A model generated the notes under the pieces. That model saw only the letters and a program-made list of their open reading frames with translations. It was not told where the DNA came from and did no database searches. A stretch of DNA of 64,000 bases, from positions 97,807 to 161,806 of the forward strand of contig JABIEQ010000014.1 of the NCBI GenBank assembly GCA_018651085.1, read 5' to 3'. Positions within the stretch are counted from its first letter, which is position 1; every line of letters starts with the position of its first letter. The position numbers were made by a program, and so were the translations under genes. Shown here piece after piece: positions 1,182 to 26,606 of this stretch. The stretch comes from Candidatus Magasanikiibacteriota bacterium (lineage in GTDB: Bacteria; Patescibacteriota; Patescibacteriia; Magasanikbacterales; UBA922).

Positions 1182-1589
1182 TTAAATAAAACGCTCAGAA
1201 AATGCCTTCATATGATTAATCATAGACGAAAGACCATTTGCCCGAGATAATGATAAATGAGATCGAAGCTCAATAGTATCAAGAAAATCCATGTTAGCCT
1301 CTTTAATCTCTTTTGGTGTTGCCCCAGAAAAAACAAAAATAAGTAATGCCACAATCCCTTTGGTAATTAACGCATCACTATCTCCTTCAAAAAAGATAGT
1401 TCCATTTTTCTCATATCCTCGAAACCATACTTGTGACTGACACCCTCGAATAAGATAGGCATCCTTTTTATACATGTCGTCAAGCATTGGTAATGATTGC
1501 CCTAAAGAAATCAGGTGTTCATATTTTTCTTCCCAAGAAGGAAAAAGAGCAAAATCACTAATACATTGTGCTATTCTTTTATCTATCAT
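1182..1589 (-). CDS. sufE: Cysteine desulfuration protein SufE
   Basis: A 135-aa ORF with the conserved persulfide-acceptor Cys in RGCQSQVW, overlapping the sufS 3' end by 4 nt. Confidence 0.7.
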   Translation of the reverse strand: MIDKRIAQCISDFALFPSWEEKYEHLISLGQSLPMLDDMYKKDAYLIRGCQSQVWFRGYEKNGTIFFEGDSDALITKGIVALLIFVFSGATPKEIKEANMDFLDTIELRSHLSLSRANGLSSMINHMKAFSERFI

Positions 1590-2791
1590 AGATGTAACAT
1601 CTCTATACTTTTTTCTAAAGCCACAAAAGCCACATCAACATCTTCTTTAGTAGAATATATTCCAAAAGAAAATCGATTCACTCCAGATACATCAAGATAT
1701 CCCATTAATGGTTCGGCACAATGATGTCCTGAACGAAACGCAATCCCTTGTTTATCTAAAAGCGTTGCAAGGTCATAATGATGCACTCCCTCAACAGTAA
1801 ACGACACTACGCCTATCTGTGTATCATTTTTTGTTCCATATATAAAAATACCAGGCAACGCATCAAGCTTTTCACATGCATATCTAGTAATCATAGCAAT
1901 GTGCGCGTGGATAGTATCTTTAGATACGTCGTTAATAAAATCAATTGCAGCACCTAATCCAAGTACACCAGCAATATGCGGCGTTCCAGCTTCATGACGT
2001 GTGGGAGACATCGATGGAGTGAATTCATCATAACTCGCTTTTTCTATCATTCCCCCACCAACATGATACGGAATAAGCATATCTAAAAAGGAAGGACTTG
2101 AAACAATGACACCAACTCCTGTTGGCCCGTACATTTTATGAGAAGAAAAAACCAAAGCATCATAATGAAGCTCCTTTTGAGATACATTCATGCTTGATGC
2201 TGCTTGTGCACCGTCAACAATACTATATGCCCCAACACTGTGAGCTAAATCACTTAACGTTTGAACAGGAAATACCGTTCCAAGCACATTAGAAATATAA
2301 GGAAACGCAACTATTTTTGTAGAGCTATCAATAACAGCTTTTGCACTATCGATATCAAGTGCATATTCATCTGTTAATTCAATAAAACGAATTGTTGCTC
2401 CTGTCTTTTTTGCTACTCGTTGCCACGGAAGAAGATTTGCATGATGCTCTGCTCGTGTAAGAACAATAGTGTCGTTTGATGTAAGAATTGACTCAAAAGA
2501 AGAGGCTATAAGATTAAGACCATGCGTTGTACCAGACGTAAATACCACACCATTCTCGTTATCTATATCACAAAATGAGGCTACTTTTTTTCGCACACCT
2601 TCATATAGTGACGTCACCTCAACACTTGTCTTATGCTCACCTCGATGAATATTTGCATTATGATCAGTATAATAAAGACTCACAGCATCAATCACCGATT
2701 GAGACGTTAAACTTGTGGCAGCACTATCAAGATACACCACTTCAGGGTGCTTTACACAAAACGGAAATTGTTTTTTATAAGAAGTATCCAT
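1586..2791 (-). CDS. sufS: Cysteine desulfurase SufS (class V aminotransferase, group II)
   Basis: A 401-aa ORF with the active-site motif RSGHHCAEPL that is typical of SufS/CsdA, sitting between sufD and sufE. Confidence 0.85.
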   Translation of the reverse strand: MDTSYKKQFPFCVKHPEVVYLDSAATSLTSQSVIDAVSLYYTDHNANIHRGEHKTSVEVTSLYEGVRKKVASFCDIDNENGVVFTSGTTHGLNLIASSFESILTSNDTIVLTRAEHHANLLPWQRVAKKTGATIRFIELTDEYALDIDSAKAVIDSSTKIVAFPYISNVLGTVFPVQTLSDLAHSVGAYSIVDGAQAASSMNVSQKELHYDALVFSSHKMYGPTGVGVIVSSPSFLDMLIPYHVGGGMIEKASYDEFTPSMSPTRHEAGTPHIAGVLGLGAAIDFINDVSKDTIHAHIAMITRYACEKLDALPGIFIYGTKNDTQIGVVSFTVEGVHHYDLATLLDKQGIAFRSGHHCAEPLMGYLDVSGVNRFSFGIYSTKEDVDVAFVALEKSIEMLHL

Positions 2792-4611: not shown

Positions 4612-6007
4612 GAGAAATTAATTTATTTAGTTCAAGAGCATATTCAAGTGGAAGTGCCTTTACAATGGGTTCAATAAAACCAGAGACAACCATTTGCATA
4701 GCTCGTTCTTCAGATAAACCTCTACTCATTAAGTAAAATATTTCATCATCCCCTATTTTTCCAACAGTAGCTTCATGCGCAATAGACACATCATCTGTAT
4801 CAATGTTCATATACGGATGCGTATTTGAAACAGATCCTTCATCGAGTAAAAGGGCATCACATTCAACCCCAACCTTAGCATTCGTTGCGGCTTTCGTCAC
4901 TTGGACATACCCACGATACGTTGAAATACCACCATCCTTTGAAATAGATTTAGCACGAATGGTTGAAGTTGTATTAGGAGCAGCATGAATTACTTTAGAT
5001 CCTGTATCTTGTTCTTGTCCTTCTCCAGCAAAAGCAATACCTAAACTATCTGATCTTGCTCCACGACCTCGAAGAATTGATGCTGGGTATAACATCGTCA
5101 CACCACTACCCATATTTCCATTAATCCATTCAATCACTCCTTCTTCGTCAACAAGCGCTCGCTTCGTATTTAGGTTATACGTATTTTTAGACCAGTTTTC
5201 AATAGAAGAATACCGTACACGGGCATGTTTATGAACAAAAATTTCAACACACCCAGCATGAAGAGAATTTACGTTATACCGTGGGGCACTACATCCTTCG
5301 ATATATTGAAGTTCAGCCCCTTCGTCAACAATAATTAATGTATGCTCAAATTGCCCAGAACCTTTGGTGTTCATACGAAAATATGCTTGAAGGGGTAACT
5401 CTACTTTCACGCCCTTTGGCACATAAATAAACGTTCCACCAGACCAGACAGCACCATGAAGCATTACAAACTTATGATCATTGATAGGGACACATTGAGT
5501 CATGAAATATTTCTGCACAAGTTCTGGATATTTTTCTACGGCTACATCCATATTCTCAAAGACCACTCCTTTATCTTTTAATGATTGCTGCAAGTTGTGA
5601 TACACCACATCACTATCATATTGTGCGCCAACACCAGCAAGAGCATGCTTTTCAGCTTCTGGAATACCAAGCCGATCAAACGTCTTTTTAATCTCATCAG
5701 GCACATCATCCCAACTTGTAACTTCAGTTGCATCAGGTCGCACAAAATATGTAAGTTCATTCAAATCAAGATCACTCAGATCTGGTCCCCAGGTTGGCAT
5801 TTTTTCCTTTTCATATAAAGTAAATGCTGCTAATCGTTTTTCAAGCATCCAAGCTGGTTCATTTTTTTGAGAAGAAATCGTTCGTACAACGTCTTCAGTT
5901 AATCCTTTCTCTACCTGAAACTTAATATTGTCTTTATTTGGCGTATCAAAAAGCTCTCGACTTACGTCAGGAACTGTACTTGTTACTTGTATACTTTTTG
6001 TATCCAT
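4586..6007 (-). CDS. sufB: Fe-S cluster assembly scaffold SufB
   Basis: A 473-aa ORF with strong SufB-type conservation across the C-terminal half (GGTFIYVPKGV, RGARSD and related motifs). Confidence 0.9.
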   Translation of the reverse strand: MDTKSIQVTSTVPDVSRELFDTPNKDNIKFQVEKGLTEDVVRTISSQKNEPAWMLEKRLAAFTLYEKEKMPTWGPDLSDLDLNELTYFVRPDATEVTSWDDVPDEIKKTFDRLGIPEAEKHALAGVGAQYDSDVVYHNLQQSLKDKGVVFENMDVAVEKYPELVQKYFMTQCVPINDHKFVMLHGAVWSGGTFIYVPKGVKVELPLQAYFRMNTKGSGQFEHTLIIVDEGAELQYIEGCSAPRYNVNSLHAGCVEIFVHKHARVRYSSIENWSKNTYNLNTKRALVDEEGVIEWINGNMGSGVTMLYPASILRGRGARSDSLGIAFAGEGQEQDTGSKVIHAAPNTTSTIRAKSISKDGGISTYRGYVQVTKAATNAKVGVECDALLLDEGSVSNTHPYMNIDTDDVSIAHEATVGKIGDDEIFYLMSRGLSEERAMQMVVSGFIEPIVKALPLEYALELNKLISLEMEGSVG

Positions 6008-6010
6008 AGA

Positions 6011-7222
6011 TTAATGCGAGAATTTTTGTGTCGAACGAAGTGTTTTTACAACAGAAGGAAGAACTTTCATAACATAATCGATATCCTTTTTTGTTGTATC
6101 TTTTCCAAGTGTAAAACGAATAGATGAAGCCGCATCATTGCTTGATACACCACACGCATGAAGAACATGAGAAACGTCAGTTGACTCACTCGTACACGCT
6201 GAACCCGTACCACAAACAATCCCATACTCGTCAAGATACAACACCAATGTTTCAGCTTCTATTCCGAGAAACTGTACATGTATATTATGTGGTAATCTAT
6301 TTTTTTCTAAAAGAGATGGCCCTGTTAATCTAATATCAGGCACAGCATCAATTAAACATTCCCAAAAATAATCACGAAGTGCTTTTACTTCAATATATGA
6401 TTCTTTACGTAAAGATTGAACAGCATCAAAAGCATAAGAAGCACCAACAATGGCTGGAACATTCTCTGTCCCTGCAAACATCCCCTGTTCTTGCCCTCCA
6501 CCAACAATAAGTGGAGATAAGGTAACTCCACGTCTACAATATAAAATACCGACACCTTTAGGCCCATACATCTTAGATCCATTCAAAGTCAATAGATCAA
6601 CATGAAGAGGCTCAACAGATAAATCATAATAAGGACTTGCCTGACACGCATCACTATGAAAATACGGATATACTGTTTTCTTCTTCTTTCGCCACTGTAA
6701 TAATGCCCGACCAATCTCGGCAATCGGATACACCGTTCCAATTTCATTATTTGCAAACATACAAGAAATCAAAATTGTATCGTCTTGTAACGCATCTACT
6801 ACTTGTTTTACCGTAACATTTCCATATTCATCAACAGGAAGATACGTTACAGAAAAACCACGTGCTTCAAGCACCTTCATCGCTTCAAGGACAGCTTTAT
6901 GCTCAACGCTTGTGGTAATAATATGTTTCCCCTGTTCTTGGTGCTTCTTCGCAATCCCTAAAATAGCCATGTTACAAGAAAGTGTTCCACTTCCCGTAAA
7001 AATAATCGTGTCACTTTGCGTTTTTAAATATGTTGAAATACGTACTCGAGATTCCTGAAGTGCTTTTTTTGCCTCAGTCCCTAATCGATATAAACTTGAA
7101 GGATTCCCAAAATGCTCTGTAAAATATGGCTTCATCTTTTCAAAGACAAAAGACGCAACAGGTGTACCAGCAGCGTGATCGAGATAAATAGATGATTTTT
7201 TAAAAAAATGACGAAAAACCAT
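6011..7222 (-). CDS. Cysteine desulfurase of the NifS/IscS type (group I)
   Basis: A 403-aa ORF with the group-I active-site loop SGSACTS and PLP-fold motifs. It is a second desulfurase in addition to sufS. Confidence 0.85.
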   Translation of the reverse strand: MVFRHFFKKSSIYLDHAAGTPVASFVFEKMKPYFTEHFGNPSSLYRLGTEAKKALQESRVRISTYLKTQSDTIIFTGSGTLSCNMAILGIAKKHQEQGKHIITTSVEHKAVLEAMKVLEARGFSVTYLPVDEYGNVTVKQVVDALQDDTILISCMFANNEIGTVYPIAEIGRALLQWRKKKKTVYPYFHSDACQASPYYDLSVEPLHVDLLTLNGSKMYGPKGVGILYCRRGVTLSPLIVGGGQEQGMFAGTENVPAIVGASYAFDAVQSLRKESYIEVKALRDYFWECLIDAVPDIRLTGPSLLEKNRLPHNIHVQFLGIEAETLVLYLDEYGIVCGTGSACTSESTDVSHVLHACGVSSNDAASSIRFTLGKDTTKKDIDYVMKVLPSVVKTLRSTQKFSH

Positions 7223-7227
7223 ATAAA

Positions 7228-7638
7228 TTACTTAACAGTCAATGCTAAATCTTCAATCGTAATACGATCAAGTTCTTCAACCATTCGTGTCTGTACCAAT
7301 GTAAACGCATTTTTAGATATACACGTTTCTTCCTTTATACAATGAAATCCTTCTTTCATACATGGAAACGCAGCATACGGTCCTTCTACAGCCTCAACCA
7401 CCGCTCGAAGCGTTAGTGTCTTTGGGGAAGCAAGCAAAAAATATCCTCCATGAGGACCTTTATTTGCGCGCACAATCCCTGCTTCTCGAAGGGCCTTTGC
7501 TATTTTTTGAAGAAAAAGAAAAGATATGGTACTCTCAGTAGAGAAACGCCGTAAACTAAGCGGTTTTTCCTTTTCCTGCCGAGTCAGCGCTAAGACAAAT
7601 TGAAGCGCGTAATCGACTTGTTTATTTACTTGAATCAT
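7228..7638 (-). CDS. Rrf2-family transcriptional regulator (IscR/SufR-like), first gene of the suf operon
   Basis: A 136-aa ORF with an N-terminal wHTH and three clustered Cys (PCMKEGFHCIKEETC) for Fe-S sensing. Confidence 0.8.
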   Translation of the reverse strand: MIQVNKQVDYALQFVLALTRQEKEKPLSLRRFSTESTISFLFLQKIAKALREAGIVRANKGPHGGYFLLASPKTLTLRAVVEAVEGPYAAFPCMKEGFHCIKEETCISKNAFTLVQTRMVEELDRITIEDLALTVK

Positions 7639-16603: not shown

Positions 16604-16650
16604 AGTAACATAAAAATACATATACCCATAAAAAAACACCTTTACTCTAT
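16604..16650. repeat. Copy 1 of an imperfect direct repeat of about 46 nt (ACATA..ATACCCATAAAAAAACACC..TACTC)
   Basis: About 85% identical to 17209-17258. It lies downstream of the LRR gene and upstream of the Zur start. Confidence 0.55.
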
Positions 16651-17028
16651 GGTTAAATTAGGATATTCATTTTGTAACAATTTTTTTTCCTCATTAGGTA
16701 GACTATCCAAGCAAAGTACTTCCTCTACTTCTCCAAATATGACATCTTTTAGACTAGTGAGACTACTAAGGTAAAGAGTTCCTCCCACATCTGGTAAAGT
16801 TATATCTTTTAAACTCGTTAAACTACGAAGAGCAAGATGCCCTTCTACATTTCCAAAAGTTACACCTTCTAAACTAGTCACACTACGAAGATCAAGATTT
16901 CCTCTTACATCTCCAAAAGTTACACCTTCTAAACTAGTCACACTCATAAAGAGAAGATCTCCTCCTACATTTGATAGCGTTACATCCTCTAAGTTCGTCA
17001 CAGCACGAAGGTCAAGATGCCCTTTCAC
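16642..17028 (-). CDS. Leucine-rich-repeat protein, five 22-aa repeats, GTG start, no signal peptide
   Basis: Tandem units (L/A)LRSVTSLEGVTFG(D/N)V(R/E)G(N/H) are visible at both the protein and DNA level. The GTG start overlaps the stop of the upstream ORF as ATGTGA. Confidence 0.55.
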   Translation of the reverse strand: MKGHLDLRAVTNLEDVTLSNVGGDLLFMSVTSLEGVTFGDVRGNLDLRSVTSLEGVTFGNVEGHLALRSLTSLKDITLPDVGGTLYLSSLTSLKDVIFGEVEEVLCLDSLPNEEKKLLQNEYPNLTIE

Positions 17029-17208
17029 ATCTGTAACCAGTCCTCGATTTTTTTTCTTGGTTGCTCTTCCTTCTCTTCCTTTCGTTCTTCACGTTGCCAT
17101 TGCAGATGTTCCACAATTGGCTCTTTATGAAGTGATGGATCTTGCCTATGAAGAAAATGCTCTGGGTTTCTTGGTCGCATAAAACAAATATTATCTAGTA
17201 GACCCTCT

Positions 17209-17258
17209 TCAAAAAAAATTATAACATAACAAAATAGATATGCCCATAAAAAAATACC
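17209..17258. repeat. Copy 2 of the roughly 46-nt direct repeat
   Basis: See copy 1. This copy overlaps the minus-strand terminator hairpin. Confidence 0.55.
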
Positions 17259-17280
17259 CCTACTCATAGAGTAAGGGTAT
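17247..17280 (-). terminator. Rho-independent terminator, minus strand
   Basis: ATACCCTTACTC-tat-GAGTAGGGGTAT hairpin followed by TTTTTTT on the minus strand. It lies inside the 115-aa ORF 17025-17372 from the ORF track. Confidence 0.65.
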
Positions 17281-17484
17281 TTAATATATTCCTTTTCGTC
17301 CTGCAACAATCTTTCAAATATGGACTCATCAGTACCAAACACATTGGTATAAGGCGAGAGTGGGTAGAACACTCTCTGGGGGGGGGATCTCCTTGCTAGG
17401 AGAAAAAAAGAACACTAGGCTCTTCCATGTCTACCGTCCTTTTACAGGACCATGAAAGAGCGCCTCACGCGCCGGCATTGCCGG

Positions 17485-17703
17485 TCAGATGTTGGGGGCC
17501 TCGCCGCCGACATCACTCAAAGAAAAAATAATGATCATCGCCGTTGCACGCTCCAAATGTCGTTTCACTAATACTCCTTGGTCCATTATTATAACCCACA
17601 GACCGGAGGGAAAGCGCGGAGGCCTAGACCGCTTCGAAAGGCATTTCAGATAGTAATCATTCCTATATAAAATGCTTTTCGAAGGGTTTCTAATACCATC
17701 CAT
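17485..17703 (-). CDS. GC-rich small-protein family, member D (72 aa from the first ATG; N-terminally short relative to A and B)
   Basis: MDGIRNPSKSILYRNDYYLKCLS...GLWVIIMDQGVLVKRHLER aligns with the D-G ... [YW][MV]V[WL] ... ER core of the ORFs at 24306, 26018 and 44600. GC is about 50% against about 35% background. A consensus promoter abuts the ATG, so the mRNA is leaderless. Confidence 0.55.
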   Translation of the reverse strand: MDGIRNPSKSILYRNDYYLKCLSKRSRPPRFPSGLWVIIMDQGVLVKRHLERATAMIIIFSLSDVGGEAPNI

Positions 17704-17712
17704 AGACAAAAA

Positions 17713-17741
17713 AATATATCATATAATGAAAGAATTGTCAA
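17713..17741 (-). promoter_or_regulatory. Sigma70-type promoter TTGACA-17nt-TATATT driving member D
   Basis: Read on the minus strand: TTGACAattctttcattatatgaTATATT, then 9 nt, then ATG. Confidence 0.6.
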
Positions 17742-17801
17742 GAAGCATAGGTAGATTTTGACTGTATATAGCAAAAATATACTTAACACATCTCATTATA
17801 C

Positions 17802-18494
17802 TTGAAGAGCTTCCTACTCTCATGCATACTACTTATACCTTTATATACTATTATGAAAAGAAAAAAACGTATTCGATTTGAAAACCTTAAAACATTTAAA
17901 AACACCACCGAATTACCAATAAAGATACAAGGCACTTGGCATACTATATTTACAAATAACCACCCTATTACTTTAGAACTTGGATGTGGAAAGGGAGAAT
18001 ATACTATTGCACTAGCAAAAAAATATAAAGAAAAAAACTTTATTGGCGTTGACATTCAAGGAGAACGTATCTGGTCTGGAGCAACCGAAGCAAAAAAAGA
18101 TAAACTCACAAATGTTCATTTTCTTCGAGTATATATTGATCACATTGATACGTACTTTATTAAAAATGAGATAGAAGAAATATGGATAACATTCCCAGAC
18201 CCACACCCAAAAGAAAGAAAAAGCAAAAAAAGATTAACTTCTCCCCTATTTTTAGAAAGATATAAACACATTCTAAAAGAAAACGGATCTGTCCATTTAA
18301 AAACAGACAACCACGACTTATTTATATATACACTAGACGTAATCAAAAAAACAAAAGGTACCATTAAAAATATACAAAATCCTATTGATGAACAAAACTT
18401 ACAAGAGGATTCCCTATTACATATTGAAACAACCTACGAAAAAATATACAAAAAACAAGGAAAACCCATCTATTATGTAGAGTGGTCTCTATAA
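17802..18494 (+). CDS. trmB: tRNA (guanine46-N7)-methyltransferase TrmB
   Basis: SAM-binding motif LELGCGKGEYTIALA and TrmB-like length. The true start may be the internal Met at 17853. Confidence 0.85.
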   Translation: MKSFLLSCILLIPLYTIMKRKKRIRFENLKTFKNTTELPIKIQGTWHTIFTNNHPITLELGCGKGEYTIALAKKYKEKNFIGVDIQGERIWSGATEAKKDKLTNVHFLRVYIDHIDTYFIKNEIEEIWITFPDPHPKERKSKKRLTSPLFLERYKHILKENGSVHLKTDNHDLFIYTLDVIKKTKGTIKNIQNPIDEQNLQEDSLLHIETTYEKIYKKQGKPIYYVEWSL

Positions 18495-24261: not shown

Positions 24262-24290
24262 TTGACAATTAAGGCAAAAATAACTAATAT
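24262..24290 (+). promoter_or_regulatory. Sigma70-type promoter TTGACA-17nt-TAATAT driving member A
   Basis: TTGACAattaaggcaaaaataacTAATAT, then AAGGAG adjacent to the ATG at 24306. Confidence 0.6.
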
Positions 24291-24305
24291 CAGAATATAA
24301 GGAGT

Positions 24306-24797
24306 ATGCGATCTTCAACCCACAACCGAAGGTGTACCGTGAAGAGGTTCATGGATTACCACAAGTTCCCGGTGAGGCAAATCAGACAAGCTCGTCTGAG
24401 ATTCAACATCAAGAGACAGGGCGGTATCTGGTACCACGTCAGAGGATGGTACCCACGAAGAATGGTAGGAAAGGAAGAACAGCACCTCGAAGTGTTCTGT
24501 TCTCAACCATACATGATGTGGATGATCGAGAACAACTGCACGGACAAAACCTTGGCAAGCCAGTGGAGCGATGGCAAGGACTACTATGGAGAAATCTACC
24601 TGTACCAAGAAGGACAACAACAACTTAGTGTCTACATGGTCTGGGTGAATCCACAGTTTGGGCAAAAAGAGGAAAGACCTCTTCCCCCAAAAAAGGACTT
24701 GCAACTCATCGCAGCAAAGCGAGCAACAAGAGGTCCAGGAAGTGACATGTGGGAATACATCAACAACAACCACCCACGTGAAGAACTCGACGACTGA
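24306..24797 (+). CDS. GC-rich small-protein family, member A (163 aa, basic N-terminus)
   Basis: About 49% GC. It shares WY-x3-R-x-VG-x3-H and SVYMVWVNP...KEER with member B (WYKADRVGRNPH..., HVWMVLDKEDKER). Its own promoter is upstream and a terminator is downstream. The overlapping ORFs on the other frames and strand are GC artefacts. Confidence 0.7.
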   Translation: MRSSTHNRRCTVKRFMDYHKFPVRQIRQARLRFNIKRQGGIWYHVRGWYPRRMVGKEEQHLEVFCSQPYMMWMIENNCTDKTLASQWSDGKDYYGEIYLYQEGQQQLSVYMVWVNPQFGQKEERPLPPKKDLQLIAAKRATRGPGSDMWEYINNNHPREELDD

Positions 24798-24846
24798 GAA
24801 GATCGCGCCCCGAGGGACATTGTCCCCCGGGTTGCGAATAATATTA

Positions 24847-24873
24847 ATAAAACCGGCAAGTAGCCGGTTTTAT
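24847..24873. terminator. Rho-independent terminator
   Basis: AACCGGC-aagta-GCCGGTT hairpin followed by TTTAT, preceded by a GGGACAtTGTCCC palindrome. Confidence 0.75.
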
Positions 24874-24895
24874 CATGTATACAAACAATGTAGAT

Positions 24896-25021
24896 CTATG
24901 AACTCGCTTCACCACCTTCAGACTTATTCGCCTGACAACTTCCACCACAACAAGGTTTACACGCACCACAGTCACACATCATGTCAGCTTCTTTTTCAGT
25001 ATTACAGTTTGAACACATCAT
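24896..25021 (-). CDS. Small Cys-rich peptide, metallothionein-like (41 aa, 9 Cys); not in the ORF track
   Basis: My own translation gives MMCSNCNTEKEADMMCDCGACKPCCGGSCQANKSEGGEASS. It is convergent with member A. Confidence 0.4.
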   Translation of the reverse strand: MMCSNCNTEKEADMMCDCGACKPCCGGSCQANKSEGGEASS

Positions 25022-25660: not shown

Positions 25661-25689
25661 TTGACAAAGTCATTATTTTGTGCTATAGT
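25661..25689 (+). promoter_or_regulatory. Sigma70-type promoter TTGACA-17nt-TATAGT driving member B
   Basis: TTGACAaagtcattattttgtgcTATAGT. Confidence 0.65.
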
Positions 25690-25696
25690 GTGTTGT

Positions 25697-26017
25697 TACA
25701 ATGAATGATTCGACAGGACCAATGGGTGACGTACATTAATACGTACTCTATTGGTTCTGTTGAATCAAAGAAGACCGAGATTTCTACGATGCGAATAAAG
25801 CATACCAATCGTAGACCTTACTCGCTGTATTTCCATACCGTCACTCAAGACAGGAATGGATAAATACACCGGATGCAGGAAAAAATCTCACAACCAATCA
25901 AGAATATCCCCCCTTATGTATCTCGCTCGATACAAAAGGCATCCTAGAAGGCATGACAATCTAGGTATAAGTCGGATGCCCGTCTGGTAAACGGGACTAC
26001 CTCCCTCGGAGGTTATC
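25697..26017 (+). other. Structured 5' leader of about 320 nt (possible cis-regulatory RNA) upstream of member B
   Basis: About 45% GC, with several perfect hairpins (CTACGAT..ATCGTAG; CCCGT-ctggtaaa-ACGGG). GGAGG sits 7 nt before the ATG and no convincing ORF is present. Confidence 0.4.
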
Positions 26018-26374
26018 ATGAGCACGAAGGTTACAGGAGAAGAGCTCAAAGAGATGTTCGAAGGAATGAACCCTCCCGAAGGTTCACCAACATGGACAAA
26101 ATGGGACCTTTTCCTAGGCATCCTCGGAAAAGAGTACCAATGGTACAAAGCAGATCGAGTGGGAAGAAACCCCCACGATTTCTTAGTCTCGTGGATGAGC
26201 GTCGACGGAAATCTCATCGAAATCGAGTCCTCCGCCCCAGACTTCAGTTGGGAGCTCCAGGTCATGAGGAGCAACCAACCTCACGTGTGGATGGTCCTCG
26301 ACAAAGAAGACAAAGAACGTGAAGAAAGCGCGTTCAGCATCCTCGCCGAGATCATCAACGCTCGTCTCACATGA
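26018..26374 (+). CDS. GC-rich small-protein family, member B (118 aa, acidic)
   Basis: About 52% GC, with a GGAGG SD. It shares the core motifs with A, C and D. Confidence 0.7.
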   Translation: MSTKVTGEELKEMFEGMNPPEGSPTWTKWDLFLGILGKEYQWYKADRVGRNPHDFLVSWMSVDGNLIEIESSAPDFSWELQVMRSNQPHVWMVLDKEDKEREESAFSILAEIINARLT

Positions 26375-26560
26375 CCAACTGCTTAGCTCAAAGCATAAAT
26401 TGAGCGGGTAGACGTATAGCTGTATTGCTGACAATCCTTGTCAGTCCGATACAGATACGTTGCCGAGTACCCGTGAACATCCTTCACAAAAACTCGGTCC
26501 TTCCAAAATATCTTTCTCTCTATAAAAAAGAGGAAGCCATTTCAAAAGGCCTAGAAATAA

Positions 26561-26592
26561 AAAAGACATTGCTCACACAATGTCTTTTTTTA
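26561..26592. terminator. Rho-independent terminator, bidirectional (ends cassette B and atpC)
   Basis: AGACATTG-ctcaca-CAATGTCT hairpin flanked by an A-run and a T-run. Confidence 0.75.
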
Positions 26593-26606
26593 ATTTATAA
26601 AATAGA

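Follow-up and report, generated by a model that had tools for sequence, protein, structure and literature searches.

A GC-rich minus-strand unit of a Candidatus Magasanikiibacteriota contig with a predicted hairpin-hammerhead-terminator module at its 3' end

What kind of unit lies behind a GC-rich block standing out from an AT-rich genome, and how would its transcript be ended? The block is located in 64,000 nt of a Candidatus Magasanikiibacteriota bacterium (assembly GCA_018651085.1, contig JABIEQ010000014.1, positions 97,807 to 161,806 of the forward strand), hereafter the window, to which all coordinates without a locus name refer. A first-pass annotation had suspected a structured RNA at this place and then settled on a protein-coding cassette, D, with a leaderless mRNA and a GC-rich 3' untranslated region (UTR), related to the cassettes A, B and C of the same window. 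Our analysis proposes instead, with a probability of about 0.75, that D is an autonomous minus-strand unit specifying a GC-rich structured RNA, which ends in a module of hairpin, hammerhead ribozyme and intrinsic terminator. The reading as a cassette was upheld in so far as D stands as a separate unit on the minus strand and has a strong promoter, but neither the homology to A-C nor the open reading frame (ORF) found support. The limits given for D, 17373-17741, cover the block but at their low end stop short of both hammerhead (17354->17291) and terminator (17282->17246).

The block itself (17373-17660) has a GC content of 51.0% against 36.6% for the whole window and contains a run of nine G at 17378-17386, as had been described. 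The promoter reported for D was likewise recovered on the minus strand and consists of TTGACA (17741->17736), a 17-nt spacer and TATATT (17718->17713), with 11 of 12 positions matching and an extended -10 TG. At the other end, 8 nt past the hammerhead, an intrinsic terminator begins, consisting of a 14-bp stem (AAAUACCCUUACUC-UAU-GAGUAGGGGUAUUU) and a following U run. The plus strand shows just two weak promoter-like sites (9/12) and neither a promoter nor a terminator of comparable strength; D is therefore a discrete minus-strand unit of ~460 nt. Within it the GC content is 48.7% over 17350-17706 and rises to 54.8% in 17350-17484. From the position of the promoter the transcription start site (TSS) is predicted at ~17707-17703; the usual spacing of 6-8 nt would place it at 17707-17705, which would leave 2-4 nt of leader. 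With the end of the -10 element at 17713, 9 nt ahead of the ATG at 17703 as had been stated, a leaderless mRNA is a geometric possibility. The features of D are as follows.

17713..17741, minus strand: sigma-70-type promoter, from the match to TTGACA-17-TATATT
17350..17707, minus strand: GC-rich structured RNA body of ~357 nt, the predicted 5' cleavage product, from GC content and fold
17629..17686, minus strand: long 5'-proximal hairpin with one mismatch, in the minimum free energy (MFE) and the centroid structure
17485..17709, minus strand: candidate ORF, coding doubtful, from the ORF list
17378..17386, minus strand: run of nine C on the RNA strand (nine G on the plus strand), within the 3' UTR-like part
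17356..17376, minus strand: pre-ribozyme hairpin GAGAGUG-UUCUACC-CACUCUC, from the hairpin at the same position in D-like loci
17291..17354, minus strand: predicted type III hammerhead, from the motif scan and covariance model R1
17246..17282, minus strand: intrinsic terminator, from the terminator scan

When analysing the minus strand behind the block, positions 17354->17291 were found to read CCUUA/UACCAA-UGUGU-UUGGUA-CUGAUGA-GUCC-(20 nt)-GGAC-GAAA-AGG, the first slash marking the predicted cleavage site, which by its sequence is a complete and previously unannotated type III hammerhead. Both parts of the conserved core are present, C3-U4-G5-A6-N7-G8-A9 as CUGAUGA (17332->17326) and G12-A13-A14 in GAAA (17297->17294), together with the G10.1-C11.1 pair closing stem II, the A15.1-U16.1 pair and an A, i.e. 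a non-G, at position 17. The predicted cleavage site, UUA/U, falls between 17350 and 17349. Stem I (UACCAA paired with UUGGUA, 17349->17333) has 6 bp and the 5-nt loop UGUGU, stem II (GUCC paired with GGAC) has 4 bp and a 20-nt loop, and stem III (CCUU paired with AAGG) has 4 bp and is open, which gives the three-helix topology of type III. An equally complete motif occurred in one of 300 dinucleotide shuffles of the window, and when only the local 106 nt were searched, Hammerhead_3 was the top match in Rfam.

The support for this motif comes mainly from metagenomic relatives. A scan of metagenomes with a pattern covering the core and stem II, CTGATGAGTCC-N(10-40)-GGACGAAA, returned 120 loci with 114 distinct matches (loci are given below as L and a number). 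A correctly placed stem I hairpin together with a U-H site and stem III was found in 50 of the 114 matches, compared to 0.85 expected when the upstream flanks were shuffled. In an alignment of D with 30 relatives (31 sequences) stems I and III were 89.6% paired, against 65% after shuffling and 29-50% when the partner was slid, and 136 cells in these two stems were changed on both sides, against 43 expected. A covariance model, R1, was built from these 30 metagenomic relatives without D. It recovers D in full length at 17373->17286 (57.7 bits, E=1.6e-13), the runner-up in the 64-kb window having an E-value of ~1. Rfam at its gathering score detected none of the related hammerheads in 20 loci; with D and these all below the threshold, the current Rfam hammerhead model misses this subfamily. 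Among the viral contigs of IMG/VR the narrow hammerhead pattern had no match, and the broad core pattern, present in 59 contigs, gave only six weak R1 matches (<=30.5 bits); an origin of the module from phages is therefore not obvious. A second subgroup of hammerheads was also seen (L086, L097, L109, L126, L136, L157, L160 and L174), in which stem I has 7 bp, loop 1 is GUGU and loop 2 contains an inserted stem-loop that is long and GC-rich, and which usually lacks a nearby terminator.

Several points weigh against a working hammerhead at this position. The score of D against Rfam RF00008 is 17.4 bits (E=0.14), far from the gathering score of 48.5, which explains why the standard Rfam scan of the whole window was silent. 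Stem III comprises just 4 bp, two of them A-U, and loop 2 is unusually long; complementarity between loops 1 and 2, sought by eye in D, L151, L143 and L095, revealed no consistent pairing or pseudoknot that could serve as the tertiary contact, on which fast cleavage at low Mg2+ depends. RNAfold gives no hammerhead fold for the isolated 75 nt, and when 17340-17700 is folded, UGGUAU at the 5' end bridges the cleavage site by pairing with AUACCA, in competition with stem I. The sequences used for covariation were moreover pre-filtered for pairing, the control for this being the 50 of 114 matches against 0.85 expected, and no close homolog was found for the 357-nt body of D, so that nothing can be said on covariation or codon-level conservation for that part. 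Taken together, the short stem, the long loop, the missing MFE fold and the low score are what a chance occurrence or an inactive relic would show, with a unit that merely ends at its terminator. Such an origin is nevertheless improbable in our view, since a comparable motif is so rare in shuffled sequence, a model that had not seen D recovers it at E=1.6e-13, all catalytically essential residues are intact, and position, strand, flanking hairpin and terminator agree with those of homologous modules. As to the score, the RF00008 alignment of D drops the 5' arm from stem III and charges a penalty for the long loop 2; the low value comes from how the curated model is made up and not from the loss of a defining structural feature. 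Judged from its sequence, the hammerhead predicted in D shows the core, the pairs and the three-helix layout that define type III, the one clear shortfall being the curated Rfam score.

The motif is part of a larger arrangement that recurs in other contigs. The module was defined by a type III hammerhead with a hairpin at most ~10 nt ahead of its stem III and an intrinsic terminator no more than ~15 nt behind it, the whole being situated at the 3' edge of a GC-rich block, and D shows each of these elements. Over ~150 nt, its whole length, the module of D aligns with those of L151, L153, L143, L095, L089, L101 and L185. The short hairpin that had been noted in D (GAGAGTG/ggtagaa/CACTCTC) is present at 17356-17376, 1 nt upstream of stem III, and in every D-like locus inspected a hairpin is located at the same position, a few nucleotides from stem III. 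In eight cases (D, L151, L143, L095, L102, L181, L153 and L122) its 5' arm is rich in purines and its 3' arm rich in pyrimidines, and its ~7-nt loop resembles CUUACC. From locus to locus the arms vary with their complementarity kept; this was assessed for each sequence individually, as MAFFT sets the hairpins in different registers. The hammerheads of the module have a small loop 1 (3-5 nt) and a long loop 2 (~11-36 nt), the latter often ending in GCAGGAC. The spacer between hammerhead and terminator is ~8-14 nt across D-like loci, and a terminator was found at the same short distance behind the D-like hammerheads of L089, L143, L151, L153, L095, L185, L079 and L117.

In these contigs, which have 33-44% GC, the module closes the 3' edge of GC-rich blocks of 300 to >800 nt, each holding an ORF on the same strand (93-336 aa) with a good Shine-Dalgarno (SD) sequence, which ends 60-260 nt ahead of the predicted cleavage site. 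The GC-rich stretch 3' of the stop codon in D, earlier read as a 3' UTR, behaves accordingly, the related loci having the same 60-260 nt between stop and module. The cargo ORFs of different module loci are mutually unrelated and mostly without a Pfam family, one of them giving a sub-threshold match to the response-regulator receiver domain. According to the source names on their proteins, L089, L095 and L101 belong to Candidatus (Ca.) Magasanikbacteria, the same group as the host of the window. Two of these, L089 and L101, have in common a ~70-nt 5' leader as well as the 3' module, but their ORFs differ (113 aa and 336 aa); the shared parts lie as follows.

L089: leader 2588-2606; 3' module 2005-2105
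L101: leader 5992-6010; 3' module 7182-7281

The cluster of proteins with at least 90% identity to the 113-aa protein of L089 also holds a metagenome-assembled genome (MAG) labelled Peregrinibacteria. The shared frames of L089 and L101 together with this cluster member suggest cargo swapping or lateral transfer, or possibly mis-binning. In the literature no paper was found on hammerheads in the Candidate Phyla Radiation (CPR) or Magasanikbacteria, or on a 3' module of hammerhead and terminator. What sets D apart from the known bacterial hammerheads is the context, i.e. a single copy, an upstream hairpin, an immediate terminator and GC-rich ORFan cassettes of CPR bacteria.

How such a module might act can be set out as a scheme, in which we infer the cleavage activity, the TSS and the role of the cyclic-phosphate end, as also the coding status of the body. 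Transcription would start near 17707-17703 from the sigma-70-type promoter, and the hammerhead, once transcribed, would fold and cleave itself after A17350. This would release an upstream RNA of ~357 nt, ending in ...CACUCUCGCCUUA with a 2',3'-cyclic phosphate; its end would consist of the conserved hairpin, six further nucleotides and the cyclic phosphate, precise and free of a U tail. The downstream fragment of ~105 nt would hold the ribozyme and the terminator behind a 5'-OH, and read-through RNA, if any, would be severed from the cargo RNA. The pairing of UGGUAU with AUACCA across the cleavage site, predicted from a single sequence, could delay or regulate the cleavage. Exonucleases that depend on a 3'-OH act poorly on RNA with a cyclic-phosphate end, as does polyadenylation, and RNA that begins with a 5'-OH is as a rule unstable or serves RtcB-type ligases as a substrate. 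In view of these decay properties the cargo RNA would gain from the module an end that is defined and protected. The fixed position of the hammerhead, which in CPR bacteria follows a hairpin and precedes a terminator where compositionally foreign single-gene units end, also suggests what a bacterial hammerhead might concretely do, namely provide an RNA with a defined 3' end that bears a cyclic phosphate and lacks the terminator.

What the RNA ahead of the cleavage site carries is a separate question. The ORF of D comprises 74 aa from TTG 17709 or 72 aa from ATG 17703, with its stop codon at 17487->17485, and within the same frame an AAGGAG (17579->17574) followed by GUG 17568 would yield 27 aa (MKRHLERATAMIIIFSLSDVGGEAPNI). 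The cargo of D would thus not exceed a peptide of 27-74 aa, and there may be none. It can be imagined that D is a small protein-coding cassette, either of 72-74 aa and leaderless or nearly so, or of 27 aa, with the hammerhead just processing its 3' UTR, and this we regard as a tentative reading, short of even odds. It is favoured by the closest module relatives (L151, L153, L122, L143, L095, L089 and L101), in all of which the module is located behind an SD-led ORF, and by the distance from stop codon to ribozyme in D, 135 nt and hence within the range of the family. The short distance from the -10 element to ATG 17703 points the same way, as does AAGGAG, sitting 5 nt ahead of GUG 17568. The GC content at the first, second and third codon positions (GC1/2/3) of the 27-aa frame, 0.50/0.39/0.57, resembles that of A-C, but 28 codons are too few for this argument to weigh, and the central GGAG of the internal SD is predicted to be mostly paired. 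The 74-aa ORF for its part has no SD, and its GC1/2/3 is flat (0.43/0.41/0.49), whereas in A-C GC2 is below GC1 and GC3. It has no Pfam match and no similarity to A-C, and an imperfect stem of ~18 bp lies within it, at ~20 nt from the 5' end predicted for the RNA. A phmmer search of 1.84 billion representative proteins matched the ORF only to a 33-aa ORF call of the same population, the region being left empty by the gene callers in four of the five assemblies that cover it; tblastn of the ORF against the 120 hammerhead loci gave no match either.

The 357-nt body could equally be sought among non-coding structured RNAs, as a small RNA or the RNA component of a ribonucleoprotein, or be an empty or decayed cassette, with a 3' end matured by the hammerhead; we consider this a serious candidate, though below an even chance. 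The absence of protein homologs and the presence of a promoter and a terminator of its own speak for it, as does the GC enrichment, which peaks outside the ORF (54.8% in 17350-17484). Hammerhead loci without an obvious long SD-led ORF upstream do occur (L078/L186, L196 and L093), but the nearest module relatives carry protein-coding cargo. It is also favoured by the very stable predicted fold (MFE -126 kcal/mol, z = -4.4); when folded on either strand, the block likewise goes far beyond shuffled sequence (z = -5.2 and -5.1). However, cassettes C (z = -4.6) and A (z = -2.9), with plausible SD-led ORFs, fold almost as well, and the fold therefore does not discriminate an RNA gene from an mRNA. 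For this reason the fold z-score was rejected as a criterion of coding or non-coding. Against a non-coding RNA it also counts that no Rfam family matches and that no homologs, and hence no support from covariation, were found; in the window blastn and nhmmer returned only D and its own inverted repeat, with no paralog.

A member of a universal RNA class is the one alternative that can be regarded as effectively refuted. The size of ~360 nt, a GC-rich sequence in an AT-rich genome and the strong fold would suit a divergent signal recognition particle (SRP) RNA, ribonuclease P (RNase P) RNA, transfer-messenger RNA (tmRNA) or 6S RNA, and the string CAGACCGGAGGGAAAGC, indeed present at 17599-17615, loosely resembles SRP helix 8. 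This string is, however, on the plus strand, while the minus strand carries promoter, terminator and ribozyme alike. The first-pass annotation had found no more than this weak SRP-like string for the four classes, and the searches made here returned none of them. Rfam at gathering score had no match anywhere in the 64-kb window, 17373-17660 included, a search of 17150-17900 at E<=10 with permissive filters returned no SRP, RNase P, tmRNA or 6S RNA, and ARAGORN detected no tRNA or tmRNA. The long stem noted earlier does exist, as an imperfect hairpin at ~17629-17686 (CCCUUCGAAAAGCAUUUU ... GAAAUGCCUUUCGAAGCGG) with one mismatch. Densely packed as the genome is, all 64 kb of the window (1-64000) lack both tRNA genes and Rfam families that reach the gathering score.

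The relation of D to the cassettes A-C, earlier based on an alignment of its ORF with theirs, could not be reproduced. BLASTP gave E>=1.9 even in a database of ten sequences, and no nucleotide similarity was found. What A-D have in common is a perfect -35 box (TTGACA), a 17-nt spacer, a GC-rich body including the UTRs and an intrinsic terminator of their own; D therefore shares the cassette architecture and not the protein family that had been claimed. The TTGACA-17-TATATT type of promoter is also found ahead of cassette C, similar sites precede A and B, and in L101 a similar site was recognised by eye. The three cassettes are arranged as follows.

24262-24875, plus strand: cassette A, with promoter 24262-24290, ORF 24306-24797 and terminator ~24845-24875
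25661-26598, plus strand: cassette B, with promoter 25661-25689, a 320-nt leader, ORF 26018-26374 and terminator 26559-26590
44670-44190, minus strand: cassette C, with promoter 44670->44642, ORF 44600->44301 and terminator 44208->44194

The ORFs of A, B and C encode 99-163 aa and have AAGGAG or GGAGG ahead of their ATG, whereas D has only the internal AAGGAG with GUG. Their GC3 is 0.57-0.61, compared to 0.20-0.24 in the genes of the host, and they are single genes with 50-59% GC within a genome of 36.6% GC. The protein of cassette B is an ORFan for which no homolog was found among 5.8 billion proteins. Neither a hammerhead nor another Rfam ribozyme was detected in A-C by a generic hammerhead scan, Rfam E-value searches or model R1. 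A homolog of cassette C (39% identity, E=1.8e-12) was found in L143, at 472-690 on the minus strand, in a block of 66% GC directly downstream of the hammerhead cassette of that locus (1186-2000, minus strand). In L143 two GC-rich units thus adjoin in a contig of ~39% GC, mirroring the A/B pair of the window, and the homolog of C next to a hammerhead cassette links the two kinds of unit by a shared genomic habit. A small cysteine-rich ORF, MMCSNCNTEKEADMMCDCGACKPCCGGSCQANKSEGGEASS, is located at 24896-25021 (minus strand), flanked by the terminator of cassette A and by a promoter-like site of the minus strand (25095->25067).

D thus takes its place in a set of compositionally deviant, GC-rich single-gene cassettes of Ca. 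Magasanikbacteria, and possibly of other CPR bacteria, of which a subset carries the module. This draws attention to a feature of Magasanikbacteria, strongly promoted ORFan genes with 50-66% GC in genomes of 33-40% GC. A bolder proposal, speculative and on the whole unlikely, is that the GC-rich units of Magasanikbacteria (A-D and the L loci) are portable expression cassettes exchanged among CPR lineages. Equally unlikely as it stands is the build that goes with it, a 5' frame of promoter and leader and a 3' frame formed by the module, with interchangeable ORFan cargo in between. The frames shared by L089 and L101 around different ORFs would fit, as would a cargo protein that is at least 90% identical between MAGs of Magasanikbacteria and Peregrinibacteria. 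If it were true, the 3' end made by the ribozyme would be a functional handle and go beyond a trimming device; such a handle could serve RNA stabilisation, RtcB-type ligation, export of RNA to a host cell or the priming of an RNA-mediated copying process.

The surroundings of D were analysed in the same assembly and in others. The locus is 99.9% identical in five other assemblies (GCA_018653445.1, Saanich Inlet and other marine assemblies), where the run of nine G has eight, the sole difference across 900 nt, which is either true variation in homopolymer length or an error of sequencing or assembly. In Saanich Inlet this population is abundant, for instance in JGI sample 3300000154. Beside D the gene of TrmB (17853-18494, plus strand) has its nearest relatives in Bacteroidota, at no more than 53% identity and in a different gene context, and among 5.8 billion proteins there was none between 53% and 100% identity. 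The contigs with an identical TrmB are themselves 99.9% identical and so offer no usable variation. The PD-(D/E)XK neighbour has many CPR relatives at 60-72% identity, and those at 67-72% showed no shared gene order. From this pattern of relatives TrmB may have been acquired laterally. On the other side a 115-aa ORF (17025..17372, minus strand), called with 51-105 aa in the other assemblies, crosses both the predicted hammerhead and the terminator, and its N-terminal part is for that reason almost certainly spurious; removing this extension is a gain for the annotation. A promoter-like site is located just past the terminator of D (17246->17218). The next ORF (16642-17028, minus strand) overlaps the 115-aa ORF by 4 nt and contains repeats of ~20 aa resembling leucine-rich repeats.

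Bacterial hammerheads are known mostly from the vicinity of prophage genes, and their cellular roles are largely unknown. With the type III hammerheads of RF00008 the motif in D shares the catalytic core, the three-helix junction, the open stem III and the U-H site; it differs from known type III hammerheads in being wedged between a conserved upstream hairpin and an immediate intrinsic terminator, and in combining a tiny loop 1 (3-5 nt) with a long loop 2 (~11-36 nt). In bacteria hammerheads were described on either side of single genes or of short blocks of genes within prophage-like regions, with the proposed role of cutting long transcripts to gene length (Perreault et al. 2011, PMC3088659). 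The one in D is likewise placed at the boundary of a single gene or gene block and is predicted to trim the transcript to gene length, but it occurs as a single copy and not as a pair or triplet flanking a gene, no integrase or prophage genes are near it in the window, and its host is a CPR bacterium.

Units with a single cargo, a strong promoter and terminator of their own and a composition far from that of the host are also found among the prophage 'morons'. D resembles them in these respects but lies outside any recognisable prophage, is GC-richer and not AT-richer, has GC-rich UTRs and contains a ribozyme. RNA 3' ends defined by ribozymes are known from the HDV-like (hepatitis delta virus-like) 'theta' ribozymes which trim phage tRNAs and from synthetic 3' cassettes with hammerhead or HDV ribozymes. 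By analogy, nearly all of the ribozyme would stay downstream in D too and leave a precise upstream end with a 2',3'-cyclic phosphate. In comparison with the theta ribozymes the upstream RNA of D is mRNA-like or an unknown GC-rich RNA and not a tRNA, the ribozyme is of the hammerhead class and its processing is a prediction. The mRNAs of the hok type, belonging to type I toxin-antitoxin systems, are activated by processing of their 3' end, which is carried out by an exonuclease. D differs from them in that a ribozyme would do the processing, that no antisense RNA gene is evident and that the hydrophobic stretch of its candidate peptide is only ~10 residues long. Like them it has a small ORF in a highly structured RNA, with 5'-3' pairing predicted across the processing site, and removal of the 3' end could therefore, by way of analogy, refold the RNA.

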